Shown one piece after another: positions 5,706 through 52,721 of a stretch of 64,000 nt of DNA. The position numbers were made by a program, and so were the translations under genes. This DNA is from Dehalococcoidia bacterium (GTDB taxonomy: Bacteria; Chloroflexota; Dehalococcoidia; SZUA-161; JAUWZY01): contig DAOULY010000004.1 in assembly GCA_034414595.1 (NCBI GenBank), forward strand, positions 21,156-85,155. Reading direction: 5' to 3'. Position 1 is the first letter of the stretch. Each line of letters begins with the position of its first letter. The notes under the pieces are model-generated. The model was given only the letters and a program-made list of their open reading frames with translations, was not told where the DNA came from and searched no databases.

Positions 5706-5993
5706 GCAAATCAATCGTGTTATTGCAAATATTTAAGGGCGGAAATAAACCTTACTTGGTGCGTGGCAAGGATCCCTACATAGGAGTTGGATCAAATGAT
5801 TATATTCCTCTAAGACATGAACCGAATGAATTAATAATAAGAGGTAGTTGATTGCCTACGATCGATCATCAATGGTAACCTTCATAATTCAATCCTCTAC
5901 TGATTTCCATTTCGCCTCATTTTACCCCGCAACATTCGTTCCAACTTCTGGAAACCAGCTTTATCTGCTTGGCGCGGGATCACCTCACATTGA

Positions 5994-33916: not shown

Positions 33917-35878
33917 GTGAGCGTTATATATACGCTATCGGAGAAGTGCCGCAGGTGTTATGCCTGTGTCCGCAACTGTCCGGTAAAAGCGATCCGCATC
34001 AGGCAGGGCCAGGCCGAAGTGGTGAAGGAACGCTGCGTCAGCTGTGGGACCTGCGTACAGGTCTGCAGCCAAGGGGCCAAGCAATATGAACGGGGTACTG
34101 GAGCTGTGTGGAATATGCTGGACGGTCGCTTACCAGTGATTGCTCTTCTCGACCCCTCTTTCCCGGCAGCATTTCCTGAGGCGCAGCCTGGCCAGGTGGT
34201 CACTGCTCTTCAAAAGCTGGGCTTCAGCGAGGTGATGGAGGCCGCTTTTGGCGCTGAGCTCATCGCCATGAAATACAAACAGTTGCTGGAAAGAAAAGGT
34301 GACAAAACCCTCATAGTGTCCCAGTGTCCTGCAGTGGTAGCCTATGTGGAGAAACATCACCCTGAGTTGATTCCTAATTTGGCACCTATAGTATCCCCGA
34401 TGATCGCCATGGGGCGTTTGATCAAGCAGAAACACAATCCTGCGGCTAAAGTGGTCTTCATCGGACCCTGTATCGCCAGAAAAAATGAAGCAGCGGATGA
34501 AAAAGTGGCCGGTGCGATTGATGCTGTACTGGCCTTCGTCGAACTCCGTGAGATGCTGTCCGCCAGGGGGATCGATCCCTCTCGTGAGCCGCTCAGCGAA
34601 TTCTCCGGGCCTCAGTCACGCACTGCCCGGGCACGTCCCCTTTATGCAAGTTTCCTCAGGTTGGTACCTCACTCGGACGATTCCAGGTTGGAGAGGGTAA
34701 TTGTAGCCAGGGTGAAAGAGTATGCCATCCAGGTCTTTCGTGATCTGGCTGAGGGACATATCAGGCCCCCTATTGTGGATGCCTATTTTTGTCCTTGCAT
34801 TGATAGCCCGTTTATCGGGAATGAGCTGAGTTTCTTTCAGAGGCGGGAGCTGATCGCCAATTATGCCGGAGACCAAACAAAGCTTGAATCAGACGAGGGT
34901 GAGATTATTGAAGAGTACGCTGACATCGATCTCAGGCGCTCTTTCACCGCAGGGACACCTTCTCGGCCACATGCTACTGAGCAGGAGATCGAAGAGGTGC
35001 TGGCTCGGATCAACCGAGCAAAGCCGGAGGACAGACTTGATTGTGGGGCCTGCGGCTATAATACCTGCCGTGAGATGGCGATCGCCATTTGTCAGGGCTT
35101 GGCCGAGGACGAGATGTGCTGGCCTTACCTAATCGAGCGATCTGAGGCTACCCAGCAGGAACTTATTCAGACAGAGAAGTTGACATCACTTGGCCAGATT
35201 GCTGCCGCCATTGCCCATGAGATCAACAACCCGCTGGCAGGGGTTCTGATTTATATCAAACTACTACTGAAGAGGGTTGGCGCGAATACTCTTAAGAGTG
35301 AGGACCTCTTAAGCTATCTTCCCAAAATGGAGTCAGAGATTAGCCGCTGCTCTGGCATCATCCGCAATCTTCTGGACTTCGCCCGACAAAAGGAGCCAAT
35401 GTTCCGGGAGGTGAATATCAACCAAGTTCTGGAAAATGCATTTTCCCTGGTAGCACATCAGGCTCAGATGCAGAACATCGAGGTGAGAAAAGAACTGAGC
35501 CCGTCTCTGCCCGTTATTGTTGCTGATCCTGACCAGCTCCAGCAGGTGTGTACTAACCTCGTTCTCAACGCCATCCAGGCAATGCCTCAGAGTGGCATGC
35601 TGACTCTGCGCACTGCCACATTTGATGATCGGGTCAAGATTGACATCGGGGACACCGGCTGTGGCATCCCTAAGGAAAATCTGCCCAGACTTTTCACTCC
35701 CTTTTTTACTACCAAGGAGAGGGGAAAAGGAGTCGGACTGGGATTGGCTGTGGTTCATGGGATAATCGAGCGACACAAGGGGAAAATAGAGGTGCAGAGC
35801 GAGGTGGGGAAGGGAACCACCTTCAGCATCTATCTGGGAGTCTCCAGTGGAGAAGAAGATCAAAATCCTGGTCGTTGA
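33917..35878 (+). CDS. sensor histidine kinase with N-terminal 2x[4Fe-4S] + [FeFe]-hydrogenase large-subunit-like domain + RnfB-type Fe-S motif
   Basis: CRRCYACVRNCP/CVSCGTCVQVC. The hydrogenase-like core is LQKLGFSEVMEAAFGAELIA...VSQCPAVVAYVEKHHPELIPNLAPIVSP...FIGPCIARKNEA...FCPC. Then LDCGACGYNTCREMAIAIC. Then HisKA LGQIAAAIAHEINNPL and HATPase DTGCGI...GLGLAV. Confidence 0.85.
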   Translation: MSVIYTLSEKCRRCYACVRNCPVKAIRIRQGQAEVVKERCVSCGTCVQVCSQGAKQYERGTGAVWNMLDGRLPVIALLDPSFPAAFPEAQPGQVVTALQKLGFSEVMEAAFGAELIAMKYKQLLERKGDKTLIVSQCPAVVAYVEKHHPELIPNLAPIVSPMIAMGRLIKQKHNPAAKVVFIGPCIARKNEAADEKVAGAIDAVLAFVELREMLSARGIDPSREPLSEFSGPQSRTARARPLYASFLRLVPHSDDSRLERVIVARVKEYAIQVFRDLAEGHIRPPIVDAYFCPCIDSPFIGNELSFFQRRELIANYAGDQTKLESDEGEIIEEYADIDLRRSFTAGTPSRPHATEQEIEEVLARINRAKPEDRLDCGACGYNTCREMAIAICQGLAEDEMCWPYLIERSEATQQELIQTEKLTSLGQIAAAIAHEINNPLAGVLIYIKLLLKRVGANTLKSEDLLSYLPKMESEISRCSGIIRNLLDFARQKEPMFREVNINQVLENAFSLVAHQAQMQNIEVRKELSPSLPVIVADPDQLQQVCTNLVLNAIQAMPQSGMLTLRTATFDDRVKIDIGDTGCGIPKENLPRLFTPFFTTKERGKGVGLGLAVVHGIIERHKGKIEVQSEVGKGTTFSIYLGVSSGEEDQNPGR

Positions 35879-37208: not shown

Positions 37209-37272
37209 CCAATTTCTTTACAGGTCTACTACCAGCTTAGATAGAATATAGCAGAACCCACTGGGGGTGTAG

Positions 37273-37302
37273 GCTGTTCCGAAGCTGCGGAACAGCTTTT
37301 TT
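37273..37302 (+). terminator. rho-independent terminator after the NtrC-like gene
   Basis: gctgttccg / cggaacagc 9-bp stem, 6-nt loop, then TTTTTT. Confidence 0.8.
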
Positions 37303-37306
37303 GTTT

Positions 37307-37323
37307 TGGCCATCAAATTGCAT
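37307..37323 (+). promoter_or_regulatory. sigma-54 (-24/-12) promoter
   Basis: TGGCCATCAAATTGCAT versus the consensus TGGCAC-N5-TTGCW. GG and GC are separated by exactly 10 nt and the full TTGCA is present. It lies about 95 nt upstream of the 37418 ATG and directly after a terminator. Confidence 0.75.
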
Positions 37324-37417
37324 GTAAAAAGGGTGGAGAGGATAGAAAGGAAGGTGAGCGGAGATGAGAGACGCAGGAATTCAAAGGGAAATCGAATTGG
37401 GAAAGGAGGTAGAAGAG

Positions 37418-38458
37418 ATGAAAGGCAGACAAGGCATATTGGTAGTAGAGGACGAGACCATCATGAGGGAGTCGCTGAAGGACTGGCTGCAGGAAGGCGG
37501 CTATCAGGTGGCCACGGCTGAGGATGGGGAGCAGGCGCTACAGATGGCCCAGGAGCAGGAGTTCGGGGTTGCTGTTCTGGACCTGAGATTGCCAGGTAAG
37601 GATGGAATCGAGGTGCTGAGGGAGGTCAAGGAACGCCAGCCTCAGCTCAAAGGGATCATCATCACCGCCTACCCTTCGGTGGAAACAGCGGTGGAGGCGA
37701 TCAAGGTTGGTGCGGTGGACTATCTGACCAAGCCCTTTGCTCCGGACGAGCTGGAGAAGCTGATCGAGCAAGTGCTGGGGCCGGTGCAGCTGGAGATAAG
37801 ACCAGAAGCACACGTAGAGATCGTAGAAGAGGCTGTCGAGGAGGCCGAGGTCGAGGAGATCATAGCCATAACTGAGGAGGAGTTCCCAGTCCATCTCCAG
37901 CTGGGTAAGGAGCACTTTGCAGCCGGTCAGTTGCAAGAGGCACTGAAAGAATTTCAGGCTGTGCTCAAGGTCGCTCCAGGCAACATCGAGACCCGAGTCT
38001 GGATTGGGAAAACGACCAAGGCCATAGCCGAGCAAGGGACCGAGGCGGGAGCTGGAGGAGAGGCTATAGCTGCCGAGGCAAAACCCAACTACTGCGTATG
38101 GATGGCGATGGGTATGGTCTCCTATCGCGTCTGCACCAACAGCTACAACTGTGTCACCTGCGAATTTGACCAGACGATGCAGGAGAAATTGGCCAGCGGT
38201 GGGGGTACAGAGCTTGACGAGGTGCTGGAGAGATTCAAGAGACTACCCGGCTATCAAAGGCTCTGCCGCTATGCTCTGAAGGGTGACGTTACCCACAGGC
38301 TTTGCACTCGCCTTTTCCAGTGCGCCACCTGTGAGTTTGGTCAGATGATGGATGACGCCCTTCAGCTACAGCTTGCGCAAAGGCAGGCTGAGATAGCCGC
38401 CCGGCAGGAGGCTATAGGCAAGAAGGGGCAGAGTTGGTGGTGGCGCTATTGGGGCTGA
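37418..38458 (+). CDS. receiver domain protein with TPR-like linker and duplicated C-x12-C-x5-C-x2-CEF[DG]Q motif
   Basis: Start at the ATG after aaggagg. REC: ILVVEDE...[11 protein letters not shown]...IIITAY...KPF. Acidic linker, then HLQLGKEHFAAGQLQEALKEFQAVLKVAPGN (TPR-like). Then CVWMAMGMVSYRVCTNSYNCVTCEFDQ and CRYALKGDVTHRLCTRLFQCATCEFGQ. Confidence 0.85.
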   Translation: MKGRQGILVVEDETIMRESLKDWLQEGGYQVATAEDGEQALQMAQEQEFGVAVLDLRLPGKDGIEVLREVKERQPQLKGIIITAYPSVETAVEAIKVGAVDYLTKPFAPDELEKLIEQVLGPVQLEIRPEAHVEIVEEAVEEAEVEEIIAITEEEFPVHLQLGKEHFAAGQLQEALKEFQAVLKVAPGNIETRVWIGKTTKAIAEQGTEAGAGGEAIAAEAKPNYCVWMAMGMVSYRVCTNSYNCVTCEFDQTMQEKLASGGGTELDEVLERFKRLPGYQRLCRYALKGDVTHRLCTRLFQCATCEFGQMMDDALQLQLAQRQAEIAARQEAIGKKGQSWWWRYWG

Positions 38459-38487
38459 CTGCGGGACAGACCGTCGGAACCGTGGAA

Positions 38488-38521
38488 ACGGACCTACCCC
38501 TGAGCTCAGGGGTAGGTCCGT
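38488..38521. terminator. bidirectional terminator hairpin between convergent genes
   Basis: acggacctacccctgagctcaggggtaggtccgt, a perfect 17-bp-arm palindrome between the 38458 (+) and 38550 (-) gene ends. Confidence 0.8.
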
Positions 38522-38549
38522 TAGTTTCCGTAAATAGGAGGACTGAGGT

Positions 38550-39179
38550 CTATTCGGAGTTAAGCGCCTGCACTATGTCATAGTAGGATGCGAGTGCGCC
38601 GGTGGGGCAGAGTGGGTGACACTCTTTGCACTTAGGGCATTCCTCACGAGCTGTTTCCGGGAAGAACACCACCTCACGCTCTGTCCCACGGCCAATAAAG
38701 CCGATGGCGTGCTTCTGCTTCACCTCTGCACAGTAACGCACGCATAGACCGCAAAGAATGCAGAAGGTTGGCTCCGTGTCAAACTTCGTTGTTTTTATGT
38801 TGTACGGTATCCCGTACTCCCTTATTGCCTGGACCTCAGTTATGCCATATCGTATTCCGTAATCTCTTATTGCTTTGACTCCGGGAGCACGGGCCCAGGC
38901 CAGCTGTAATAGCATCTTGCGGATCTTGACCACCGGGGCAGATTCCGTCTCCACTGTAAGGCCTTCTTCAACAGGATAGACACACGAGGCAACCAAACGC
39001 GACCGTCGCCCGTTAGTTATCTCCACAGTGCACAGTCGGCAGGCACCATATGGGGCCAGTTTCTCATGATGGCAAAGGGTAGGGATGTCAACTCCCACAT
39101 TTCGAGCCGCTTCAAGGAGAGTCATCCCCTCCTCGGCTGTCACCTTCTTGCCGTCGATAGTCAAGTTGACTTCACTCAT
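38550..39179 (-). CDS. HoxU/NuoG-N-terminal-like [2Fe-2S]+[4Fe-4S] ferredoxin subunit
   Basis: LTIDGKKVTAEEGMTLLEAARNVGVDIPTLCHH...GACRLCTVEI ([2Fe-2S] fold), CILCGLCVRYC and CPKCKECHPLCP. Start overlaps the nuoF-like stop (ATGA-type coupling). Confidence 0.85.
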   Translation of the reverse strand: MSEVNLTIDGKKVTAEEGMTLLEAARNVGVDIPTLCHHEKLAPYGACRLCTVEITNGRRSRLVASCVYPVEEGLTVETESAPVVKIRKMLLQLAWARAPGVKAIRDYGIRYGITEVQAIREYGIPYNIKTTKFDTEPTFCILCGLCVRYCAEVKQKHAIGFIGRGTEREVVFFPETAREECPKCKECHPLCPTGALASYYDIVQALNSE

Positions 39180-41104
39180 TTTTCCCCGCCTCCTTTGCGT
39201 ATTACAGCTGTCCCTACTGCAACGGGTTCAGGCACTTTCACACCTGAGAGTTTAGTGACGGCACCAAAACGTGTTGGGCAAACCTCGAGACAAGTTCCAC
39301 ATTTGGTGCACTTCTCTTGATCTATGACATGGATAACGTTCTTGTCCCCCTCAATGGCTCCGACGGGGCAGTTCCTTAAGCAGATCATACAAGCCTGACA
39401 TTTTTCCGGTTCTATGTAGTAGGAAATCAACGCCTTGCATACCCCAGCCGGACAGCGCTTCTCTTTAATATGTGCAATATACTCATCCCGGAAGTAGCTA
39501 ATTGTACTGAGGACCGGGTTAGGAGCTGTCTGACCCAGAGCGCAGAGGGAAACAGCCTTAACCACCTCCGATATCTCCTCCAGTAACTCGATGTCCCCTT
39601 CCCTGCCCTCTCCGTCACAAATTCTATTGAGTATCTTGAGCATCTGCCATATGCCCTCACGGCAGGGAAGACACTTGCCACAGGACTCGCTCTTGAGGAA
39701 GTCAAGGAAGTATCTTGCCGTATCTACCATGCAAGTTTCCTCATCCATGACGATCATGCCGCCCGAGCCCATCATCGAGCCGAGCTTGCCGAGCTCATCG
39801 AAGTCTACCGGCGCGTCGAGGTATTGCTCTGGAATCACTCCGCCGGAAGGGCCACCTGTTTGAACAGCTTTGAACCTCTCGCCTCCTCTAATTCCCCCGC
39901 CGATTTTGTACACGATATCCCGCACAGTAGCACCCATGGGCACTTCTACCAGGCCGGTGTTGTTCACCTTGCCTACCAGGGAGAATATCTTTGTCCCCTT
40001 GCTCCCTTCGGTGCCAATGGACCGGAACCAGTCAGCACCTTGGTTGATAATAAGCGGCACATTGGCCCAGGTCTCCACGTTATTGAGGTTTGAGGGATTG
40101 TCCCAAATTCCCTTGACCGCAGTGCGGATGTACTTCGGTCTGGGCTCGCCCACTTTCCCTTCTATCGCAGTCATCAGGGCGCTCGATTCGCCGGAGACAA
40201 AGGCCCCGGCCCCTCGATGGATGGTGACGTGAAAGTCGAATCCGGAGCTGAGGATATCTTCACCCAGGAGCCCGTACTCCTCTGCCTGTTTTATGGCGGT
40301 CTCCAGGTTTTCCACCGCCAGGGGGTATTCCTGTCGCACATAGACAAAGCCTTCAGTCGACCCGATGGCATAAGCCCCGATGATCAAGCCCTCCAGCACG
40401 CTATGAGGGTTTCCTTCCATCAGGCTCCGGTCCATGTAAGCGCCAGGGTCGCCTTCATCGCAGTTGACGATGACAAATTTTGGCTCTCCTGGGGCATCGC
40501 GGCAGGTCTTCCATTTCCTGCCGGCGGGGAATCCCCCACCACCTCTACCCCGCAGGTTTGCTTTATCCACCTCGGTCAGGACCTGCTCCGGGGTCATCTG
40601 AAACAGAGCCTTGGCCAGCGCGGAGTATCCCCCCAGAGCGATGTAGTCCTCGATGCTCTTGGGGTCGAGTTTAGTGTTGTTGGCAAGTACAATTCGCTGC
40701 TGGTGTCGATAAAAAGGTATTTCATGTTCATGGACTATCTTCTTTCCTGTGACGGGGTCATCATAGAGCAACCTCTCAACGAGCTCTCCTTTTGCTGTAC
40801 TGGCTACTATCTCCGGTACGTCCTCCCGCTGTGCGTTGCAATAGCAAATCCCCTCTGGGAAAATAACAACAAGGGGTCCCCTCTCACAGAAACCGTGGCA
40901 ACCAGTCCTCCTGAAATCTATCTTTTGCTCTAAACCATTTTTCCTGAGTTCCTCGACAAAAGCAGTGACAACTTCCTCGCTTCCGTAAGCGTGGCAGCCG
41001 GTACCGGAACAGATAGTGATACAAAGTTTTTTGGGGTCCCTCTGGGCCAGGATTTCTTTCCTGAATTCTTCCAGTTCTGTTGCTGATAACAGCCTGTTGG
41101 CCAT
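39176..41104 (-). CDS. NuoF-like NAD(H)/FMN subunit, bifurcating-type (HydB/HndC/Bfu-like) with extra N-terminal [2Fe-2S] and C-terminal 2x[4Fe-4S]
   Basis: 642 aa. CSGTGCHAYGS...CHGFCERGP N-terminal domain. GRGGGGFPAGRKW, CDEGDPGA, ESCGKCLPCREG (N3 cluster). C-terminal CQACMICLRNCP and CTKCGTCLEVCP. Confidence 0.9.
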   Translation of the reverse strand: MANRLLSATELEEFRKEILAQRDPKKLCITICSGTGCHAYGSEEVVTAFVEELRKNGLEQKIDFRRTGCHGFCERGPLVVIFPEGICYCNAQREDVPEIVASTAKGELVERLLYDDPVTGKKIVHEHEIPFYRHQQRIVLANNTKLDPKSIEDYIALGGYSALAKALFQMTPEQVLTEVDKANLRGRGGGGFPAGRKWKTCRDAPGEPKFVIVNCDEGDPGAYMDRSLMEGNPHSVLEGLIIGAYAIGSTEGFVYVRQEYPLAVENLETAIKQAEEYGLLGEDILSSGFDFHVTIHRGAGAFVSGESSALMTAIEGKVGEPRPKYIRTAVKGIWDNPSNLNNVETWANVPLIINQGADWFRSIGTEGSKGTKIFSLVGKVNNTGLVEVPMGATVRDIVYKIGGGIRGGERFKAVQTGGPSGGVIPEQYLDAPVDFDELGKLGSMMGSGGMIVMDEETCMVDTARYFLDFLKSESCGKCLPCREGIWQMLKILNRICDGEGREGDIELLEEISEVVKAVSLCALGQTAPNPVLSTISYFRDEYIAHIKEKRCPAGVCKALISYYIEPEKCQACMICLRNCPVGAIEGDKNVIHVIDQEKCTKCGTCLEVCPTRFGAVTKLSGVKVPEPVAVGTAVIRKGGGEK

Positions 41105-41112
41105 ATCCCCTC

Positions 41113-41574
41113 CTACTCATAGCTTTGGAGAATCTCTTCCACTTTGGAAAATGGCAGTTTGCCATGATACTTGCCATCTACCACCATCACTGGTCCCAGA
41201 GCACAGCAGCCGAGGCAGTTAACCGCTTCCAGGCTGAACTTCAGGTCCGGCGTTGTCTCACCGGGCGCAATGTCGAGAATTTGCTGGGCTCGCTCCAAGA
41301 TGCGCCGCGAGCCCCGAACGTGGCAGGCGGTGCCCATGCAAACAACGACCTCATGACGCCCTTTGGGAACCAGGCTGAAAGCTTTATAGAAGGTAGCTAT
41401 ATGGTATATCTGAGGTAAGGGGACACCGAGCTTCTCGCTGACCGATATCAGAGCCTCTCTGGGCAACCAGCGGTGTTCACGCTGAATATCGAGAAGAATC
41501 TGAATCAGGGCACTTTTATTATGACTTCCGTACTTGCCAACGATTTCATCTACTTCGATAGGTGCCTGAACCAT
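41113..41574 (-). CDS. NuoE/HoxE/HydC-like thioredoxin-fold [2Fe-2S] subunit
   Basis: 153 aa. ALIQILLDIQREHRWLP, VCMGTACHVRG, CLGCCALGPVMVVDG. Confidence 0.9.
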   Translation of the reverse strand: MVQAPIEVDEIVGKYGSHNKSALIQILLDIQREHRWLPREALISVSEKLGVPLPQIYHIATFYKAFSLVPKGRHEVVVCMGTACHVRGSRRILERAQQILDIAPGETTPDLKFSLEAVNCLGCCALGPVMVVDGKYHGKLPFSKVEEILQSYE

Positions 41575-41906
41575 TTGCTCATCACCTCCTCTACGGGTAG
41601 CTTATCATGCGCACCTATAGCCCACATCGGCTGACGGGCCTATATTTGGCTTGGATTAGGTAAGCACTTTGGCCTAAAGGGTTCTTTATTACAAGTGTCC
41701 CGCTATGCCTAAGTGCTTGGCTGAAGCTTTGGGAGAGTTAGCCCACTCTCCCAGGTTGTCGCCCCGCACACCCGCACAATTGCTTAGAAGTTGGCAAATC
41801 TTTCTAGGCCTTTTCTTCGCCCAAAGATAAGTCGGCCAGCCGATGCGGCCTGTGATGCGCAGCTGTTAGGCTATGGCTGGAAAGAGGAGAGGGGAGCAAA
41901 AGAGAG

Positions 41907-42529: not shown

Positions 42530-43309
42530 ATGACAGTAATATGGGCCATACTTCTGGTGCTGGGCATCTTCATCGTCGCCCCAGCGTTGATTGGCTTTGG
42601 GATAGTCGGAGTTGTGGTCTTGCGCCGCCGGGTTCACATGGCTCGGGCTCAGGCGCAGTTTACCCGGGCAGCAGCTACCTATAGAGACGGCATTAATTTT
42701 GTGGATGAAGTCTGCGCTGTCCCTGGTGGCGAAGGCGTCCGCACTTGCATCCAGTGCGGCATCTGCTCAGGCTCCTGTCCCAATGCAAATGTGATGGACT
42801 ATACACCACGGAAGATCATTGCTCTGGTGCGCGCCGGGGCGCGGAAGGAGGTACTGTCGAGCAACTCGATGTGGTACTGTCTTTCCTGCTACCTTTGCAC
42901 GGCGCGCTGCCCGCGGGGCATTAAACCAACAGATGTCATGTATGCCCTGAAGCAAACTGCTATCCAGCACGGTTTCAAGTATGGGCCAACTGATGCCCCT
43001 ATTATGTACCGAACCTTTGTTGATGCTATCAGCGGCAACGGGCGCGTCCACGAGTTTGGGATGATGAGAAACTTCTACTTGCGGACCAACCTGTTCAAAG
43101 CGATAGGAATGCTTCCGGTAGGCTTGGGCTTGCTCCGACACGGGCGCATGCCTTTTAGAAGTGAAAAGATGAAGGGGGCAGCTCAGGTTCGGACCATAAT
43201 CGAAAAGGCTCGGATGCTGGAGACTGCCCCGCCCAAGATGGTTGAAAAAAACGAGACTGTGGAAGAAGCTCAGCCGATCTTAACGCATACCACGGAGGTG
43301 AGGAAGTGA
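42530..43309 (+). CDS. hdrC: heterodisulfide reductase subunit C with N-terminal transmembrane helix
   Basis: CIQCGICSGSCP and CLSCYLCTARCP (HdrC 2x[4Fe-4S]), preceded by a 25-residue hydrophobic helix. Stop overlaps the hdrB GTG start. Confidence 0.88.
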   Translation: MTVIWAILLVLGIFIVAPALIGFGIVGVVVLRRRVHMARAQAQFTRAAATYRDGINFVDEVCAVPGGEGVRTCIQCGICSGSCPNANVMDYTPRKIIALVRAGARKEVLSSNSMWYCLSCYLCTARCPRGIKPTDVMYALKQTAIQHGFKYGPTDAPIMYRTFVDAISGNGRVHEFGMMRNFYLRTNLFKAIGMLPVGLGLLRHGRMPFRSEKMKGAAQVRTIIEKARMLETAPPKMVEKNETVEEAQPILTHTTEVRK

Positions 43310-44184
43310 GATATTACGCCTACTTTCCCGGTTGTTCGCTTGAAGGTACGGCAATACCCTACAAGCTGTCCATTCAGGCGGTGAGCAAAGCTTTGGGGGT
43401 CGAGCTGGTTGAACTCGAGGACTGGAATTGCTGCGGAGCTTCGGCCTATAGCTCGGTGGACGAACTGGTATCCACATGCGTCTCAGCCCGCAACTTGGCC
43501 CTGGCGGAGAAAACCGGGCTTGATCTGGTAACTGCCTGCAGTGCTTGCTATACCACCTTGAATAAGGTGAATTCTGCGCTGAAGCAATACCCACAGCTAA
43601 AGGCCAGCGTGGGTGAGGTGCTATCCGCAGTTGGTCTAGAGTACAGAGGGACTGCCAGAATAAGGCATCTGGCCCGGGTTCTGCTGGAGGATATCGGTTG
43701 CGAGGCTATTGCCAGTGAGGTACGGCAGCCACTTGAGGGGCTAAGGGTAGCGCCTTACTACGGGTGCCAGCTCGTCCGGCCCCACCCTAGTCTAGACAGC
43801 GCTGAATTTCCTGACTCCTTGGATCGCCTTATGGAGTCTCTCGGTGCTGAGGTGACTGTTTTCCCGCTCAGGGCTCGCTGCTGCGGCGCATCCCTGATTA
43901 TCTCCCAGCCGGAAGTGGCTCTGGGCCTGATCCGTAAACTCCTTGATAACGCTGTGGAGAATGACGCTCAGTGCTTGGTGACCGTTTGTCCGCTGTGCCA
44001 GACGAACTTAGATGTATACCAGGGCAAGGTTGCCTCCAAATTCCAGGTAAAATATGACATTCCCGTATTCTTCTTTACGCAACTGGTGGGGCTGGCTCTG
44101 GGGCTGGGCTTCAAAGAGCTTGGCATAGATAAGCTGGTCGTGCCAGCTGAGAAGTTGCTGACTCAGCATAAGGTTAGAGTTTAG
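43306..44184 (+). CDS. hdrB: heterodisulfide reductase subunit B
   Basis: Two CCG domains: YFPGCSLEG...NCCGAS and YYGCQLVRP...RCCGASL. Confidence 0.92.
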   Translation: MRYYAYFPGCSLEGTAIPYKLSIQAVSKALGVELVELEDWNCCGASAYSSVDELVSTCVSARNLALAEKTGLDLVTACSACYTTLNKVNSALKQYPQLKASVGEVLSAVGLEYRGTARIRHLARVLLEDIGCEAIASEVRQPLEGLRVAPYYGCQLVRPHPSLDSAEFPDSLDRLMESLGAEVTVFPLRARCCGASLIISQPEVALGLIRKLLDNAVENDAQCLVTVCPLCQTNLDVYQGKVASKFQVKYDIPVFFFTQLVGLALGLGFKELGIDKLVVPAEKLLTQHKVRV

Positions 44185-44192
44185 GAGGCCAG

Positions 44193-47100
44193 ATGGAGAC
44201 GAACGGACGGAGAATAGGCGTCTATGTTTGCTACTGCGGGTCGAACATTGCGGGCATGGTTGATGTGGAAGAAGTGGCCGAATTTGCTCAAGATATCCCT
44301 GGGGTGGTGGTATCCCGAGCGTACAAATACATGTGTTCCGAACCGGGTCAGGAACTCATCAAGAAGGACATCCGAGAACTCGGAGTCGACCGGGTAGTAG
44401 AGGCCTCCTGTTCACCCCGGATGCATGAGCCCACCTTTCGGCGTGCCCTACAGGACGCGGGACTGAATCCCTATCTGCTGGAGATGGTCAATCTTCGGGA
44501 GCACTGTAGCTGGGTTCATGAGGATAGGCTGGCAGCTACGGAGAAGGCCAAAGCACTGGTCAACGCAGCGGTGAGGAGGGTCTACTACCATGAGCCCCTG
44601 GAAACTAAGGAGGCACCGGTTAATCCCAACACCTTGGTGGTGGGGGGAGGGATTGCGGGGATTCAGGCGGCTCTGGAGATCGCCAACGGGGGTTACAAGG
44701 TCTACCTGGTGGAGCGTGAGCCCTCCATCGGTGGTTACATGATCAAGCTCGATAAAACTTTCCCCACGCTCGACTGTTCGGCCTGTATCCTCACTCCCAA
44801 GATGACCGATGTGGGCCAGCACCCGAACGTGGAGCTCATGAGCTACAGCGAAGTGGCAGATGTTTCGGGCTATGTGGGGAATTTCAAGGTCAAGATAAGG
44901 AAGAAAGCAAGGTATGTAGATGAGACCAAGTGTACTGGTTGTGCTGAGTGTTCCAAGGTCTGTCCTGTTGAGGTGAAGAGCGAATTTGAAGAGGGCCTCG
45001 CCAATCGCAAGGCGATCTATATCCCCTTCCCCCAGGCCGTGCCCAATAAAGCGGTCGTAGACAAGCATGGTTACCCACCCTGCCGGGCGGCCTGTCCCGC
45101 CGGCGTCAATGCTCAGGGTTATATCGCCCTTATCTCACAGGGCAAGTTCAGAGAAGCTGTTGATGTGGTGAGGCGGACCATGCCTTTTCCTGGGATATGC
45201 GGGCGGGTTTGCACCCACCCCTGCGAAATCGATTGTGAACGGGGGAAGATCGATGAGCCTGTTTCGATCAGGAGCTTAAAGCGCTTTATAGCTGATTATG
45301 AGCTGAAGGTGGGTAGGGAGAAGGCCACTCCGGTCAAGCTGAGTAAAGAGGAAAAAGTGGCTGTCATTGGCTCTGGGCCGGCGGGCTTGGCTTGCGCTTA
45401 TGATCTGGTCGGGATGGGCTATCCGGTGACCGTGTTTGAGGCCATGCCCGAGCCTGGAGGCCTGTTGCGTTATGGAATTCCGGAATATCGTCTACCTAAG
45501 AAGGTGCTGAATAATGAGATAGACTACATCAGAGAATTGGGTGTGGAGATCAAGACCATGACCCCGGTGAGGGATTTGTCTCAGCTCTTTAAGCAGGGCT
45601 ACAAGGCCGTTTTCTTGGGAACCGGGGCAAGTGTGAGCCGGAAGATGGGCATTCCAGGCGAGGAGGTTGCGGGGGTGCTCCATGCCCTGTCGTTCCTGAA
45701 GCAATCCCACTCCGGGGCCAGGGTAGGCTTGGGGCGGCGGGTGGCAGTGGTCGGTGGTGGCAACGCCGCCGTTGATGCCGCCAGGGTGGCGTTGCGCTTG
45801 GGTGCTGAAGATGTCACCATTGTCTATCGCCGTTCTCGGGCAGAGATGCCTGCTGTTCCCAGCGAGGTCGAGCAGGCCGAACGTGAGGGAGTGAAGATTC
45901 AGTTCCTCACCGTTCCGGTTCAAATTCGGTCCAAGGATGGCATGTTGGTGGGCATGGAATGCATCCGGATGGAGCTTGGCGAGCCCGATGCCAGCGGGCG
46001 CCGCCGGCCGGTTCCGATCAAGGGCTCAGAGTTCACCATCTGGGTGGACAACGTGATCATTGCCACCGGCCAGGCTGTGGATAAAGCTCAGCTCCCATCC
46101 GAGTTGGTGTTCACCGACTGGGGCACGATCTCCGTTGACCCGGTCACGCTGGAGACGAACATCAGCGGGGTGTTTGCTGGTGGGGATGTGGTAGCTGGGC
46201 CGGCGGATGTTATTGCAGCTATTGCCGCAGGGAAGGAAGCCGCTATATCCGTTGATCGTTATCTTAGCGGAGTTGACATGAGCGAAGGGAGACCCAGGGC
46301 TATTAGCAGGGTTGCTGAAGTGGCTAAGGAAGGTGTGGAGGCAAGACCCCGGGCGACTATGCCATTGCTGGAGAGCAAAGGACGGCTTGACTCTTTTGCC
46401 GAGGTTGAACTCGGCTTTGATGAAAAGAGGGCTATCGAGGAGGCCAAGCGCTGTTTGAACTGTGGCGTCTGTTGTGAGTGTCTAGAATGTGTCAAGGCCT
46501 GTGAGGCCCAGGCTATCAATCATGAGATGAAAGGCGATATCATAGAAGTAGAAGTGGGCAACATCATCCTTGCCACCGGGTATCAGCAGTTCGATCCCTC
46601 GGTCATCCCGCAGTACGGATATGGGAGGTATGATAATGTTGTCACTGGCCTTGAATTAGAGCGGATGATCAATGCCTCTGGCCCTACTTCTGGTCAGGTC
46701 TTGCTTAAAAATGGCCGGGAACCTGAGAGCGTCGCCATAATACACTGCGTGGGCAGCCGCGATGAGAACTATCATGAATATTGCTCCAGGGTCTGCTGCA
46801 TGTACGCTCTGAAGTTCTCCCATTTGCTCAAGGAACACATCCATGGTGTCCAAGTATACCAGTTCTACATTGACATGCGTTGCTTTGGCAAGGGTTATGA
46901 GGAATTCTACAACCGCCTTCTGGCGGAAGGGGTGAATTTCGTTCGCGGCAAACCCGGCGAGATCACTGATGTGGCCGAGACGCCAGAGGAGCGAGGCAAA
47001 CTCGTCATACAGGTTGAGGATACCCTCGCCGGACAACAGCGCCGCATACCGGTTGACATGGTTGTCCTCTGCAGTGCTCTGGAGCCACGAAGTGACTCCG

Positions 47101-47546
47101 ATGAAGTCGCTCGGCTCTTCCGCATCAGCAAGACCGCTGATGGCTTCTTCCTGGAGAGGCATCCCAAGCTCGATCCAGTGGCTACCCCCAGCGACGGAAT
47201 CTATGTGGTTGGCTGTTGCCAGGGGCCCAAGGACATCCCTGACACGGTGGCCCAAGCTTCAGCGGCGGCCGCTCGAGCCCTGGCTTTGATCAGCAAGGGG
47301 ACAGTGGAAATAGAGGCGGGCATTGCGGCAGTCGATGAGCAGCTATGCTCCGGCTGTAAGACCTGCATCATGCTCTGCCCTTATAGTGCTATCTCCTTCG
47401 ATGAGGAGAAAGAGGTCTCCGTTGTCAATGAAGCAGTGTGCAAGGGATGTGGCACCTGTGCCGCGGCATGCCCTGCCGGCGCTATCACTGCTCGGCAATT
47501 CACCACTGAGGAAATAATGGCTCAGATCGAGGGGGTGCTGGTGTAA
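44193..47546 (+). CDS. hdrA: heterodisulfide reductase subunit A with inserted GltD/NfnB-like NAD(P)H oxidoreductase module (HdrL-like)
   Basis: 1117 aa. RIGVYVCYCGSNIAG, GGGIAGIQAA, KCTGCAECSKVCP. The insertion is PPCRAACPAGV...CGRVCTHPCEIDCERGK, GSGPAGLACA, GGGNAAVD. It then resumes AKRCLNCGVCCECLEC...IHCVGSRD...CSRVCC. C-terminal CSGCKTCIMLCP/CKGCGTCAAACP. Confidence 0.92.
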   Translation: METNGRRIGVYVCYCGSNIAGMVDVEEVAEFAQDIPGVVVSRAYKYMCSEPGQELIKKDIRELGVDRVVEASCSPRMHEPTFRRALQDAGLNPYLLEMVNLREHCSWVHEDRLAATEKAKALVNAAVRRVYYHEPLETKEAPVNPNTLVVGGGIAGIQAALEIANGGYKVYLVEREPSIGGYMIKLDKTFPTLDCSACILTPKMTDVGQHPNVELMSYSEVADVSGYVGNFKVKIRKKARYVDETKCTGCAECSKVCPVEVKSEFEEGLANRKAIYIPFPQAVPNKAVVDKHGYPPCRAACPAGVNAQGYIALISQGKFREAVDVVRRTMPFPGICGRVCTHPCEIDCERGKIDEPVSIRSLKRFIADYELKVGREKATPVKLSKEEKVAVIGSGPAGLACAYDLVGMGYPVTVFEAMPEPGGLLRYGIPEYRLPKKVLNNEIDYIRELGVEIKTMTPVRDLSQLFKQGYKAVFLGTGASVSRKMGIPGEEVAGVLHALSFLKQSHSGARVGLGRRVAVVGGGNAAVDAARVALRLGAEDVTIVYRRSRAEMPAVPSEVEQAEREGVKIQFLTVPVQIRSKDGMLVGMECIRMELGEPDASGRRRPVPIKGSEFTIWVDNVIIATGQAVDKAQLPSELVFTDWGTISVDPVTLETNISGVFAGGDVVAGPADVIAAIAAGKEAAISVDRYLSGVDMSEGRPRAISRVAEVAKEGVEARPRATMPLLESKGRLDSFAEVELGFDEKRAIEEAKRCLNCGVCCECLECVKACEAQAINHEMKGDIIEVEVGNIILATGYQQFDPSVIPQYGYGRYDNVVTGLELERMINASGPTSGQVLLKNGREPESVAIIHCVGSRDENYHEYCSRVCCMYALKFSHLLKEHIHGVQVYQFYIDMRCFGKGYEEFYNRLLAEGVNFVRGKPGEITDVAETPEERGKLVIQVEDTLAGQQRRIPVDMVVLCSALEPRSDSDEVARLFRISKTADGFFLERHPKLDPVATPSDGIYVVGCCQGPKDIPDTVAQASAAAARALALISKGTVEIEAGIAAVDEQLCSGCKTCIMLCPYSAISFDEEKEVSVVNEAVCKGCGTCAAACPAGAITARQFTTEEIMAQIEGVLV

Positions 47547-47592
47547 AACAATCTGCCGACCTAGACAGAGTTTTGCCTAAGGAAATAAAAAG

Positions 47593-49842
47593 ATGAAACC
47601 AATATTGGTAGTAGATGACGAATCTATTATGAGGGAGTCTCTCCGAGATTGGTTAACCACCGGTGGTTATGAGGTAGAGACCGCTAAGGAGGGAGAGGAA
47701 GCATTAAGAACTATTGCCAAGCAGGACTTTGAACTTGTTATCCTCGACCTGAGGTTGCCAGGAAAGGATGGGATTGAAGTACTAAAGGAGGCCAGGATAC
47801 AAAGACCGCAGATTAAGGGGATTATCATTACCGCTTATCCCTCAGTGCAGACAGCGGTAGATGCGATGAAGGAAGGTGCTGTCGATTATTTACCCAAACC
47901 CTTTGAACTCGATGACCTTGAGAAAATAATTCGGGAGACTCTTGGACCAGTTCAGATAGAGATAGTGCCAAAGGCTGCCACTGGGACAGCTATAGCCGAA
48001 TTACCTCCTATAGTAGTAGAGGAAGTAAAGGCGAAAGAAGAGCCGGCACAGGTTGAGGAAGTGATTGATGAGGAGACGGGGAAAATATACCTGCCTCCTT
48101 GTCAGATAGCTTGCCCTATTGGAGAGGACATTCAACGAACTAATGCAATGATTGCCCTTCTTCCTCTGGATCCTGAGGAGGCTTCCAGCCAGGTAATAAA
48201 AATAGGTGATGTGATTTACGAGAAGAATCCTCTATTCCCAGTATGCAGCTATATTTGTGGGCTTTGTGAGAGGGAGTGCAATTGCAAAGACCAGACCGGA
48301 GCAATAAGAAGAAAGTTGCTCAAACGGTTTCTAACTGATTATTACCTTCCATACTTGGAAACCAAGCCACCAATTCCCTACCCTACTAAGGAAAAGGTTG
48401 CTGTGATTGGGGGAGGACCCGGGGGATTGATGTGTGCTTACATGCTTAGTAAAAAGGGATATCAGGTGACTATTCTGGAAATGAGTTCCCAGTTAGGGGG
48501 TGCTCTAAGATACATCCCTCGATATCGTCTGCCAACAAATATTATAGATACTACTTTAAATAATCTGGCAAGGATCGCCCATATTGATGTTAAATTCGGA
48601 GTAAAGTTGGGCAAGGATGGGAAAACGCTGGATGACCTTCAAAATGCAGGTTACCAGGCCATATTCATTGCTACCGGCACCCATTCTCCTAGACCCCTTA
48701 CTATTGAGGGACAACTAGTAACAGGAGCAAATCTAGATGGCGTCGAGTTCGGGTTGCATCTTCTCTCCGATGTGAACCAAGGAAAGGTCTCTACTCGGTT
48801 CCTTCGCCGGCTCTTTTCGGGTAGGAGGGTGATAGTAGTGGGCGGTGGCAATGTGGCATTTGATGTAGCAAGGTCTGTCCGGCGGCTCGACGGAGATGTT
48901 TCTATTGTCTGTCTCGAGTGTGAGGATAAATCTTCTAAGGATGGGGTTCCGGCCGATGTAGAAGAGATAGAAGGCGCTGAAGAAGAAGGCATAGAAATAC
49001 ATTATTGCCGGGGAATAGAAGAGATAATCGGAGAGGATGGAAAATTCAGAAAAATAAAATGCCCCCGTTGTATATCAGTCTTTGATGAACGCGGATTCAA
49101 TCCTAAATTTGACCGGAGTGATGCGATATATCTTGAGGGTGATGTGTTGCTGATTACCATAGGGCAAGGTTCAGAGCGGGCATTTTTCCAGCAGGAAGGC
49201 TTGTTTAATGATAAAGGCAGGCTTGATATCGACCAGTTTACTCTCATGAGCAATCGCAAAGAAGGAGTTTTCATTGGAGGCGATGTAAGGCGGGCAGGTT
49301 TTGCTGCGGAAGCAATGAGAGATGGGGTAATGGCAGCGGAGTCTATAGATCGCTACCTGAGGGGTGAGAACCTGAAGGCAGGCAGGGAAAAGGAATATGA
49401 AAATGCTGCTATCCCCCAGCTTATGGATTACAAGCCTCAACCTCAATTGGAATGGGCACCGGTGGAAGAGAGGCTAAACTTTGAATTGTTTGAAAAAGGG
49501 TTCACCCTGGAAGAAGCAGTGAAAGAGGCCAGAAGGTGCCTGTGCTGTGGCCCATGTAAAAGTTGTAAAGCGTGTGTGGCACTGGCACTTCAGCCTCAGA
49601 TACCACAAATTGAAATCGACCAAGATGTATGTAGCGGGTGTGGAATTTGTGTTGCCGTATGCAGCTACAATGCAGCCAAAATAGTGAAATCTGATAACGG
49701 GAGCGGGCTAGTATCAATTATAGATGACCTTAGGTGCAAGCGATGTGGTGTATGTATTGCTGCCTGTCCTGCTGAAGCCATTAACACTAACCAATTTACT
49801 ACTGAGCGCATTATGACTGAGATTGAGGAGGTGCTGGTATGA
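47593..49842 (+). CDS. receiver (CheY-like) domain fused to GltD-like flavoprotein and HdrA-type C-terminal ferredoxin domain
   Basis: 749 aa. REC: ILVVDDE...[11 protein letters not shown]...IIITAY...PKPF. Then [11 protein letters not shown]...[71 protein letters not shown]. The tail [16 protein letters not shown] mirrors the HdrA tail QFTTEEIMAQIEGVLV. The stop overlaps the mvhD ATG (ATGA). Confidence 0.88.
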
Positions 49843-50291
49843 GCTTCGAACCAAAGATCGTTGGCTTCCTGTGCAACTGGTGCTCTTATGCCGGAGCCGA
49901 TCTGGCAGGTACATCGAGGATCAAGTACCCTCCCAATGTGCGGGTAGTAAGGGTGATGTGTAGTGGGCGAGTGGAACCCGCTTTTGTGCTCAAGGCCTTC
50001 GCCTGTGGAGCAGATGGTGTGCTCATCTGCGGCTGCCATCCCGGAGACTGCCACTACATGGAAGGGAACTATAAAGCGGCCCGACGCATCCCTTTGCTCA
50101 AGGAAATGCTAAAGCAGTTTGGGATCGAGGAAGAGAGGGTTCGTCTTGAGTGGGTCTCTGCTTCTGAGGGCGATCGCTTCGCCGCCATCGTCAAGGACAT
50201 GACAGCTAAGATAAGAGAATTAGGACCTCTCGACTGGAACGAAAGGAGGCGAGGTGCAGAAGCTGAAACTGGCACTATACTGGTCGGCTAG
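49839..50291 (+). CDS. mvhD: MvhD-like hydrogenase iron-sulfur subunit D
   Basis: [21 protein letters not shown]...MCSGR...[10 protein letters not shown]. Confidence 0.9.
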
Positions 50292-51219
50292 CTGTGGTGG
50301 CTGCGATGTCGCTGTCCTCGATACAAATGAAAAGATCCTCGACATAGCTGAGATAGCCGACATCGTCTTCTGGCCCATAGCTCTGGATTTCAAGTATGAC
50401 GACGTCAGGGCCATGGATGACGGGAGCATCGATGTCTGTCTTTTCAACGGTGCGGTGAGGAACTCGGAGCAGGAGGAGATCGCCCGGCTGCTTCGAGCCA
50501 AGTCAAAAGTGATGGTGGCCTTTGGTGCCTGTGCCTGCTTCGGCGGCATCCCAGCCTTGGCCAACCTCACCAACAAGGAGGGGATATTCGAGCGGGCTTA
50601 TGTAGAGGCTCCTTCAAACGATAACCACACAGTGGCCTACCCCCAGCTCAAAACGAGTGTCCCCGAGGGAGAGCTCGAAATACCTGAGTTCTATGATACT
50701 GTCCTGGCACTGCATCAGCTGGTAGATGTGGAATACTTCGTGCCTGGCTGTCCACCTCCGGTGGACCTGATCTTGGAGTTTGTGAATATGCTGAAATCGG
50801 GCCAGCTTCCCCCGCCGGTGGCTGTGCTGGCCAAGGAGAAGTCGCTCTGTGATGAGTGTCCCAGGAAGAAAGAGGAGAAGAAAATTACTCGGATTTATCG
50901 ACCCCACCAGCTCATTCCTGAACCCGAGCGCTGTCTCTTGGAGCAAGGGCTAATCTGCCTCGGCCCGGCGACCAGGGGGGGCTGTGGCGCCCGATGCATC
51001 CTGGCCAACATGCCCTGCCGGGGCTGTTTTGGGCCTACGCCAGAGGTCACAGACCAGGGGGCCAATATACTCAGTGCAGTGGCCTCGATCTATGAGGTCA
51101 GGGATGAGGAGGAGATTACAAGGATGACAGATGAGGTGGTAGACCCAGCAGGCACATTCTACCGCTTCGGCATGTCAACCTCGCTGCTTCAAAGCAGGAG
51201 GGAGAAGGAGGCCAAATGA
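50254..51219 (+). CDS. mvhG: [NiFe]-hydrogenase small subunit, Mvh/group-3 type
   Basis: [18 protein letters not shown] (proximal cluster CxxC), [26 protein letters not shown] start after aggagg. Confidence 0.88.
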
Positions 51220-52721
51220 AGTTGGTAACCATTAACCCCATCACCAGGCTGGAAGGGCATGGAAAGATAGACATTTTCCTTGATGACGAGGGAAATGTGG
51301 CCAATGCCTACCTCGAGATTCCTGAGCTCCGCGGGTTCGAGAAATTCTGTGAGGGAAGGCCGGTGGAGGAAATGCCGCGGATAACCCCCAGGATTTGCGG
51401 CGTCTGCCCCGGAGCGCACCATATGGCCTCGACCAAGGCCACTGATGCTGTCTTTCATATTGAGCCACCGCTGGCGGCGAAGAAACTGCGGGAGCTTTTT
51501 TACTGTGCCCATATGATCCACTCCCATATCGCTCACTTCTACGCTCTGGCTGCTCCTGACTTTATCCCCGGCCCTATGGCTGACCCTAAGGAGAGGAACA
51601 TCCTGGGACTGATAGCCAAGGTCGGGCTCGAGGTCGGCAGTGAGGTGATCAAACACCGTGCCTATGCCCAGGATATACAAGCAGTTATTGGGGGCAAGGC
51701 AACTCATCCCGTCTGCGGCTTGCCGGGGGGGATGAGTAAAGCTATTACCGAGGAGGAACGGCGCGACTTTGAGGAAAAGGCCAGGAGCTTGGTCGAGTTT
51801 GGCAAGTTCTCACTAAAGCTGTTCGACGACTTGGTCCTGGCTAACAAAGAGTACCTGGATTTGATCTTAGGCGACATCTACACTATGAAGAGCTACTACA
51901 TGGGCCTGGTGGATGTCAATAACAGGGTGAACTTCTACGAAGGCGATATTCGGGTTGTTGATCCCGAGGGGAACGAATTCCACAGGTTCAAGCCTGCTGA
52001 GTACTTGGATTACGTAGCGGAGCATACGGAGCCCTGGTCCTATTTGAAGTTTCCCTTCTTGAAAAAGGTTGGCTGGAAAGGGCTGGTGGATGGGAGTGAA
52101 AGCGGGGTCTATCGGGTGAATTCCTTAGCTCGACTCAACGTGGCCGACGGTATGGCAACTCCGTTGGCTCAGGAAGAATATGAGCGGATGTTCCAGACTC
52201 TTGGCGGCAAGCCGGTTCACGCCACGCTGGCCTTCCACTGGGCGAGGTTGGTAGAGCTACTATATGCTGCCGAGCGACTGCTTGAGCTCTGCCAGGACGG
52301 GGAGATCACCGATCCCAATGTCCGGATCATCCCCACAGCTACCCCGGATGAGGGGGTCGGTGTGGTGGAGGCCCCGCGGGGCACACTGTTCCATCGCTAT
52401 CAGACCGATGATAAGGGCATTATCCAGAAAGTGAACTTGATCGTGGCTACAGTGCAAAATAATCCGGCCATGAACATGTCCGTCAGGAGAGCAGCTCAGG
52501 GTTTGATTCACAAGGGTAAGGTGGTGACCGAAGGACTGTTGAATATGGTCGAGATGGCATTTCGCGCCTATGACCCGTGCATGGCCTGTGCTACCCATAC
52601 CTTGCCCGGGCAGATGCCACTCGAGGTGGTTATCTACGATAGCAAGGGGCAGGTGGTTGAGAAGTTGAGTCAGCACTTGCATTCAGAGTCGACTGGCATA
52701 AGAGTGCAGGTAGTGACATAG
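51216..52721 (+). CDS. mvhA: [NiFe]-hydrogenase large subunit, Mvh/group-3 type
   Basis: ITRLEGHGKI, RICGVCPGAHH (N-terminal Ni-Fe ligands), C-terminal DPCMACATH followed by about 40 aa of cleavable extension. Confidence 0.92.
   Translation: MKLVTINPITRLEGHGKIDIFLDDEGNVANAYLEIPELRGFEKFCEGRPVEEMPRITPRICGVCPGAHHMASTKATDAVFHIEPPLAAKKLRELFYCAHMIHSHIAHFYALAAPDFIPGPMADPKERNILGLIAKVGLEVGSEVIKHRAYAQDIQAVIGGKATHPVCGLPGGMSKAITEEERRDFEEKARSLVEFGKFSLKLFDDLVLANKEYLDLILGDIYTMKSYYMGLVDVNNRVNFYEGDIRVVDPEGNEFHRFKPAEYLDYVAEHTEPWSYLKFPFLKKVGWKGLVDGSESGVYRVNSLARLNVADGMATPLAQEEYERMFQTLGGKPVHATLAFHWARLVELLYAAERLLELCQDGEITDPNVRIIPTATPDEGVGVVEAPRGTLFHRYQTDDKGIIQKVNLIVATVQNNPAMNMSVRRAAQGLIHKGKVVTEGLLNMVEMAFRAYDPCMACATHTLPGQMPLEVVIYDSKGQVVEKLSQHLHSESTGIRVQVVT

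Follow-up and report, generated by a model that had tools for sequence, protein, structure and literature searches.

A conserved sigma-54-type promoter and an eight-cysteine receiver protein beside a signaling cassette in Dehalococcoidia

Genes and elements at the locus

We analyzed a 64-kb stretch of DNA from a Dehalococcoidia bacterium (assembly GCA_034414595.1, contig DAOULY010000004.1, positions 21,156 to 85,155; 64,000 nt, hereafter the window), focusing on a gene whose product joins a receiver domain, a TPR-like helical unit and a C-terminal domain with eight cysteines. We refer to this domain as Cys8 and to the protein as REC-TPR-Cys8. Three tightly packed genes lie directly upstream and form a cassette that encodes a short sigma-54-like factor, a sensor histidine kinase with an [FeFe]-hydrogenase-like domain and an NtrC-type activator. 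Between the cassette and the REC-TPR-Cys8 gene lies a sigma-54-type −24/−12 element that recurs at orthologous loci in related genomes (Table 1). The genomes compared are metagenome-assembled; the one that contains the window is 97% complete, with an estimated contamination of 5.45%.

Table 1. Coordinates of the features discussed, in window positions unless a locus is named
Feature	Position	Strand	Basis
Short sigma-54-like factor, 367 aa	32811-33914	+	Pfam Sigma54_DBD, 76.8 bits
Sensor histidine kinase: 2x[4Fe-4S], [FeFe]-hydrogenase-like, FeS, HisKA, HATPase_c	33917-35878	+	Pfam Fe_hyd_lg_C, 161.6 bits
NtrC-type sigma-54 activator: REC, AAA+ with GAFTGA, Fis-type helix-turn-helix	35847-37208	+	Pfam, 250.8 bits
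Perfect 17-nt inverted repeat TGTAAAGAAATTGGTCA / TGACCAATTTCTTTACA, straddling the activator stop codon	37184-37222	.	sequence
Intrinsic-terminator-like hairpin of 11 pairs (37271-37298) and T-run, ending the activator operon	37271-37306	+	folding
Sigma-54-type −24/−12 promoter TGGCCATCAAATTGCA	37307-37322	+	pattern, conservation in orthologous loci, position weight matrix scan
REC-TPR-Cys8 gene, 346 aa (P0001); alternative in-frame start at 37364 gives 364 aa	37418-38458	+	translation
Receiver domain, aa 7-116	37436-37765	+	Pfam REC (PF00072), 113.8 bits, cut-off 30.2
Acidic linker (aa 122-152), then three-helix TPR-like unit (aa 153-206)	37781-38035	+	translation, Pfam, AlphaFold
Cys repeat 1: C226-x12-C239-x5-C245-x2-C248-EFDQ	38093-38173	+	translation; Cys invariant
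Cys repeat 2: C283-x12-C296-x5-C302-x2-C305-EFGQ	38264-38344	+	translation; Cys invariant
C-terminal helix and Trp-rich tail SWWWRYWG (38432-38455)	38345-38455	+	translation, homolog alignment
Perfect 18-nt inverted repeat between convergent gene ends	38487-38522	.	folding, z = −5.3
Short receiver/reduced-Cys paralogs in relatives	L009:7169-7786, L011:7039-7701, L017:7033-7719, L019:7173-7781, L030:7155-7763, L033:5043-5657, L042:7085-7696		

The start codon of the REC-TPR-Cys8 gene is ambiguous. The ATG at 37418 has an AGGAGG 8 nt upstream, and the ATG preferred by public gene callers yields the longer form (P0004); no domain is affected by the choice. The architecture that the first-pass annotation read from the letters, with a receiver, an acidic linker and TPR-like helices, is supported, and the translation contains its two quoted cysteine strings exactly. 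In the receiver, E11/D12, D55, T83, Y102 and K105 are invariant among 42 homologs; the acidic pocket, the phospho-acceptor Asp, the Thr/Ser, the aromatic switch residue and the Lys are thereby all retained. The TPR_2 match (aa 158-189, 24.3 bits) falls just under its cut-off of 27, and AlphaFold places three helices in this unit with a predicted local distance difference test score (pLDDT) of 80-95. By hhalign (99.3%, E 5e-20), the two cysteine repeats are homologs of one another. The Trp-rich tail is kept as SWWWxYW in one homolog subfamily but missing in the other, and may serve at a membrane interface or in partner binding.

Three elements of dyad symmetry accompany the gene. The hairpin and T-run that end the activator operon adjoin the −24 element directly, ending at its TGG, so the earlier claim of a terminator immediately before the promoter is borne out. 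Among 50 relatives, 38 carry a hairpin (folding free energy ≤ −8 kcal/mol) and T-run abutting the −24 element, with stems whose sequences vary from locus to locus, suggesting selection on structure. The palindrome at the activator stop codon, which can also be written TGTAAAGAAA-N-TTTCTTTACA, occurs once in its genome and is separated from the −24 element by about 105 bp, in the 80-150 bp range expected of an activator site. Relatives, translocated copies among them, share its outer arms TGTAAAGAA...TTCTTTACA, and the palindrome is probably the binding site of the activator (an upstream activating sequence). The third element sits between the REC-TPR-Cys8 gene and a convergent gene that ends at 38550. 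It had been called a perfect bidirectional terminator; the repeat is indeed perfect and its folding stands out, but its T-tracts are weak, and for this reason we consider the terminator role plausible and not firm.

The promoter and its cassette

The putative promoter, TGGCCATCAAATTGCAT (37307-37323), has GG at 37308-37309 and GC at 37320-37321 separated by exactly 10 nt, followed by A to complete a full TTGCA. Counting such patterns in the window is not informative on its own: TGGY-N7-TTGCW has five matches where 3.1 are expected, which is not above chance. The other four matches (2443, 16340, 49746 and 60728) all sit within coding sequence, leaving the site at 37307 as the only intergenic and correctly placed one. 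The match at 2443 encodes LGAGFAL in a small, probably membrane, protein of 60 aa, whose open reading frame (2310-2492, + strand) had not been listed.

The promoter call was decided by a comparative test. We compared 56 orthologous loci from species-representative genomes, all with 150 nt or more of sequence before the gene. TGGC-N7-TTGC occurs 46-142 nt upstream of the gene in 51 of them, compared to approximately 0.005 matches expected per 300 nt. The consensus of these orthologous promoters is tTTGGCAAGAAAATTGCa, and the element is fixed among the loci while its flanks diverge. It is also retained at two loci (L006 and L012) where the gene has been relocated and now lies apart from the activator; it moves with the gene and not with the upstream operon. 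A second copy or near-copy of TGGC-N7-TTGC occurs 55-125 nt upstream of the first at some loci (L012 ~5776-5790, L017 ~5777-5791, L068 and L050).

We then scanned the whole 2.8-Mb genome with a position weight matrix (PWM) built from the orthologous promoters. The window site ranks second (17.2 bits). The rivals checked are in or overlap long open frames or lack a usable downstream gene, making the window site the best-scoring intergenic match with a downstream gene. An identical 15-mer of the promoter at C16:175006 is inside coding sequence, and a loose sigma-54 pattern with 194 matches in the genome was uninformative. Neither a targeted search nor the PWM scan found a sigma-54 site upstream of the inverted nuoE-like gene (region 41575-41803) or of hdrC. 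From the position of the −24/−12 element, the transcript start is predicted near 37332-37336. Together with the sigma-54-like gene and the activator in cis, the spacing, the TTGCA and the comparative footprint uphold the near-consensus sigma-54 promoter of the first-pass annotation.

The cassette contains what such a promoter calls for. Its sigma-54-like protein scores 94.5 bits against the NCBIfam rpoN model (cut-off 277), with a match to the C-terminal part only, and it is the product of the only Sigma54_DBD gene in the 97%-complete genome. GAFTGA is readable in the translation of the activator, which is encoded by the one true Sigma54_activat gene; other matches reach 26 bits or less. With one sigma-54-like gene, one true activator and no better-placed PWM site, the cassette appears to serve this single promoter in its genome.

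The order sigma-54-like gene, kinase, activator and REC-TPR-Cys8 gene is kept in most loci. Among 201 evenly sampled Dehalococcoidia genomes, a full-length Cys8 gene was found in four, and all four carry a short (369-375 aa) sigma-54-like gene approximately 4.4 kb away on the same contig. Any sigma-54 was found in only four further genomes (hypergeometric p ~1e-6, by our own calculation). Cassette and target occur as a unit, with a patchy distribution. In this sample the short sigma-54 forms occur only beside the Cys8 gene, and canonical-length frames (486-528 aa) occur in three larger genomes.

Downstream of the promoter, the first-pass annotation had described a monocistronic gene. This description holds in the window's own genome, where the nuoEFG-like genes are inverted, but not in relatives, where the gene heads an operon and nuoE-, nuoF- and nuoG/HoxU-like genes follow within 6-30 nt of its 3′ end (L001, L003, L012, L016, L034, L036, L044, L049 and L052). 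The same-strand downstream neighbors (n = 29) include nine further receivers, seven nuoE-like genes, two Hdr-like genes and two HycI genes. Directly downstream of one ortholog is a receiver paralog with another Cys-rich C-terminus (L058:7047-7814), which matches the NCBIfam two-CW model at E 6.6e-6 and 26.4 bits, under the cut-off of 35.

Receivers fused to redox subunits also occur in this clade, namely in a flavoprotein of the window's Hdr operon (47593-49842) and in a HoxU-like subunit at L003. The REC-TPR-Cys8 receiver is 66% identical to that of the flavoprotein, in agreement with the paralogy proposed in the first pass, and 44% identical to that of the activator, with near-identical alpha-1 helices; identity to nearby NarL-type regulators is 26-30%. 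In two-component systems the alpha-1 helix carries much of the partner specificity. Because their alpha-1 helices are nearly the same, it is plausible that one kinase serves all three receivers. This similarity and the gene neighborhood are the basis for the putative branched phosphorelay suggested in the first pass.

The eight-cysteine domain

To determine how widely Cys8 occurs and whether it belongs to a described family, we searched with the C-terminal region of the protein. An exhaustive phmmer search with the last 131 aa recovered 214 clusters at the 50% identity level. Across 60 diverse domain sequences (17-74% identity) the eight cysteines are the only invariant columns, so the motif pair is conserved in homologs; one Trp, one Gly and one Gln are nearly invariant.

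The first-pass annotation could assign the cysteine pattern to no named domain, and the library searches agree. For the cysteine region, Pfam and NCBIfam scans up to E = 10, run with the whole protein and with the domain alone, gave chance-level matches only, the best for the domain being Pfam zf-CHY (E 0.02, 15.9 bits, cut-off 31.3). For the C-terminal 100-130 aa, no named zinc-ribbon or zinc-finger Pfam family matched at E ≤ 0.01, and no NCBIfam family matched the domain. Against PDB sequences, phmmer with Cys8 returned no matches and a profile search reached E 4.8 at best. Foldseek searches with the domain model returned no PDB matches at E ≤ 10 and nothing significant in BFVD. Two specific candidates were rejected: a 2x[4Fe-4S] bacterial ferredoxin, by the x12, x5, x2 spacing (compared to C-x2-C-x2-C-x3-C-P) and the lack of a Fer4 match, and the two-CW domain (NF045718), which NCBIfam does not report for Cys8. 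A literature search on the motif, on GcvH-like Cys-rich fusions and on kinase-linked sensory hydrogenases in Dehalococcoidia found neither the domain nor the circuit described.

AlphaFold run on the diverse domain alignment gave a model with pLDDT 85.6 and a predicted template modeling score (pTM) of 0.72. In each repeat of the model a beta-bridge lies beside Cys1 and Cys2, and Cys3-x2-Cys4 is located at the N-terminus of a helix, an arrangement that fits one four-cysteine site per repeat. Each repeat probably holds one metal centre, Zn or Fe-S, and the eight invariant cysteines make a metal or Fe-S module plausible as the output of the protein.

A conserved family of short paralogs bears on how the ligands are grouped. 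These proteins of approximately 200 aa combine a receiver with a reduced module, H-x12-C-x5-C-x2-C, followed by a vestigial second repeat (QRLCRYASVHF). The replacement of Cys1 by His suggests a separate metal site for each repeat, and we take the short paralogs as support for such local, per-repeat ligation. In many relatives the short paralog lies directly downstream of the REC-TPR-Cys8 gene (Table 1). The copy in the window's own genome is outside the window (C17:147274-147888, − strand), preceded by a kinase gene and followed by a molybdopterin-oxidoreductase-like gene.

Cys8 also occurs in proteins of other architectures. Among 60 sampled architectures, it precedes a GcvH-like protein on the N-terminal side in 38 and is fused to a receiver in eight. 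A profile search recovered at least 1,780 Cys8-GcvH fusion clusters, mostly from Desulfobacterota and all named only "glycine cleavage system protein H". One protein (P0132) has the order TPR-Cys8-HisKA-HATPase_c, with the TPR-Cys8 unit as the N-terminal input of a histidine kinase, and a TPR-Cys8 kinase closes the orthologous clusters at L001 and L003. In two others (P0261 and P0280), HoxU-like Fe-S modules are joined to single Cys4 repeats and GcvH. As Cys8 is found both as kinase input and fused to GcvH, its sequence contexts mark it as a portable module that is not specifically a response-regulator output.

We note two features of the GcvH fusions. At three Desulfobacterota loci (L094:5887-7927, L095:5224-7242 and L096:5873-7927), 308-aa Cys8-GcvH fusions stand in tandem with a 332-aa GCV_H paralog. 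In both fusions inspected (P0143 and P0167), the residue at the lipoyl-lysine position is not Lys.

Proposed circuit, alternatives and known systems

We propose that the REC-TPR-Cys8 gene is the dedicated target of a self-contained signaling cassette, and that its product is a phosphorylation-controlled, metal-binding sensor or adaptor for NuoEFG-like and Hdr-Mvh enzymes. In this scheme the kinase would sense H2 or redox state through its [FeFe]-hydrogenase-like Fe-S sensor and phosphorylate the adjacent activator. The activator would bind the palindrome at its own stop codon and open the −24/−12 promoter, read by the cassette's short sigma-54-like factor, while the terminator directly upstream would insulate the gene from read-through. 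The same kinase may also phosphorylate the receiver of the REC-TPR-Cys8 protein, creating a feed-forward circuit. The TPR-Cys8 part could then work as an adaptor, sensing redox state or binding a partner, on the NuoEFG-like diaphorase, the Hdr-Mvh enzymes (42530-52721) and signaling proteins encoded nearby. Promoter conservation, linkage to the cassette, domain architecture, cysteine invariance and absence from the searched libraries are observed, whereas the signal, the phosphotransfer, the metal content and the binding partner are inferred.

Our confidence differs between the parts. It is high for the promoter and the cassette. The role of the Cys8 module in redox sensing or partner binding is tentative, and we would put it at somewhat below even. 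As a whole, the proposal is the best explanation we have, with the balance tipping slightly in its favor. Several observations weigh against it. The sigma-54-like factor is divergent, falling below the NCBIfam RpoN cut-off, and profiles recognize its DNA-binding part only. In the window the nuoG/HoxU-, nuoF- and nuoE-like genes (38550-41574, − strand) run in the opposite direction, converge on the gene and are not co-transcribed with it. The contexts of the Cys8-GcvH fusions (L091 and L094-L096) are uninformative and show no consistent partner. Finally, the full-length AlphaFold model, built on a shallow alignment of 42 close homologs, is poor in the Cys domain (pLDDT 31-51).

The alternatives differ in which part of the proposal they replace. 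TGGC-N7-TTGC could instead serve another regulator as its operator or belong to the terminator, with the gene transcribed from a sigma-70 promoter or by read-through, and the atypical shortness of the sigma-54-like factor is in keeping with this. However, sigma-54 is an exact fit for both the spacing and the invariant GG and GC, the element follows the gene and not the upstream operon at L006 and L012, and sigma-54-like genes co-occur with the Cys8 gene in Dehalococcoidia. Moreover, the stretch from the terminator to the start codon showed no sigma-70-like site, and the strong terminator would block read-through. We assign this explanation the lowest probability of those considered. Only slightly less remote is a nucleic-acid-binding output, in which the two Cys4 units would be zinc fingers or ribbons on DNA or RNA and the protein a second-tier transcription factor. 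Many nucleic-acid-binding zinc modules have Cys4 pairs with a C-x2-C at the start of a helix, and the sub-threshold zf-CHY matches point weakly in the same direction; against this, the domain matches none of the zinc-finger families or solved structures searched. Its isoelectric point is near neutral (5.8 here, median ~7), it is fused most often to a GcvH-like lipoyl-type domain and it also serves as kinase input, and for these reasons we disfavor nucleic-acid binding.

The remaining alternative leaves the promoter in place and changes the role of the product. As a phosphate sink providing negative feedback, the protein would compete with the activator for phosphoryl groups of the kinase and damp the response, and Cys8 would be a zinc-stabilized structural element for dimerization or stability. 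No output of the cassette other than this gene is visible, the receiver it encodes resembles that of the activator (44% identity, shared alpha-1) and several extra receiver genes follow the ortholog in relatives, all of which would suit a sink. Yet a sink needs no TPR-Cys8 unit whose eight cysteines are invariant across architectures as diverse as kinase input and GcvH fusions, and we consider this explanation improbable.

Returning to the adaptor proposal, we also considered a bolder form of it. Cys8 may represent a new family of two-center Fe-S or redox-metal domains that, controlled by receiver phosphorylation from an H2-sensing kinase, dock onto NuoEFG-like diaphorase or Hdr-Mvh complexes and gate electron flow. 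A histidine kinase and the large family of non-lipoylated GcvH-like proteins of sulfate reducers would then use the module as their redox input. We think this unlikely, if a little less so than the sink. If true, it would mean that two-component signaling acts directly on electron-bifurcating metabolism.

The locus has two wider implications. With its one factor, its one activator and a single promoter, it is a candidate private sigma-54 system and a clean, testable one, from a Dehalococcoidia lineage that has not been cultured, is patchy in its distribution and otherwise seldom carries sigma-54. In addition, it brings out an eight-cysteine domain so far without annotation, which is found in hundreds of receiver proteins, at the input position of a kinase and in more than 1,000 "glycine cleavage H" annotations of anaerobes. 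Identifying the metal and the partner would explain how H2 or redox sensing reaches Hdr-Mvh and NuoEF-type enzymes, and would correct a large set of uninformative annotations.

A close known arrangement is the HoxBC-HoxJ-HoxA system of Cupriavidus necator, in which an H2-sensing hydrogenase-like sensor, a histidine kinase and an NtrC-family regulator act on sigma-54 hydrogenase promoters. The Dehalococcoidia cassette shares the combination of hydrogenase-like sensor, histidine kinase, NtrC-family regulator and sigma-54 promoter, but here the kinase itself carries the sensor as a fused [FeFe]-hydrogenase-like domain, and the cassette brings its own short sigma-54-like factor. Its target also differs, being a Cys8 receiver protein (with nuoEFG-like genes in relatives) and not hydrogenase structural genes. 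HydDB lists putative sensory [FeFe] hydrogenases as group C, including a "histidine kinase-linked" subgroup (PMC5037454), and the upstream kinase, with Fe_hyd_lg_C, HisKA and HATPase_c, resembles this group. That classification concerns the sensor and is silent on a downstream sigma-54 promoter and a Cys8 receiver protein.

Among receiver proteins, REC-TPR-Cys8 is similar to CheY, CpdR and RssB-type adaptors in having a receiver without DNA-binding or enzymatic output, and its TPR-like helical repeat would suit partner binding; unlike them, it has an additional conserved eight-cysteine domain. The Cys8 domain shares with WhiB-like [4Fe-4S] proteins (C-Xn-C-X2-C-X5-C) and small Cys4 Fe-S sensors a small helical fold, four invariant cysteines, spacings of 2 and 5 and a setting in anaerobes or redox contexts. 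Compared to WhiB-like proteins, however, its spacing order is reversed (x12, x5, x2), its unit is duplicated and it has no Pfam Whib match. The two-CW domain (NF045718) is likewise a small Cys-rich domain, found C-terminally on the receiver paralog at L058, whereas Cys8 has a different cysteine pattern and does not match the two-CW model.

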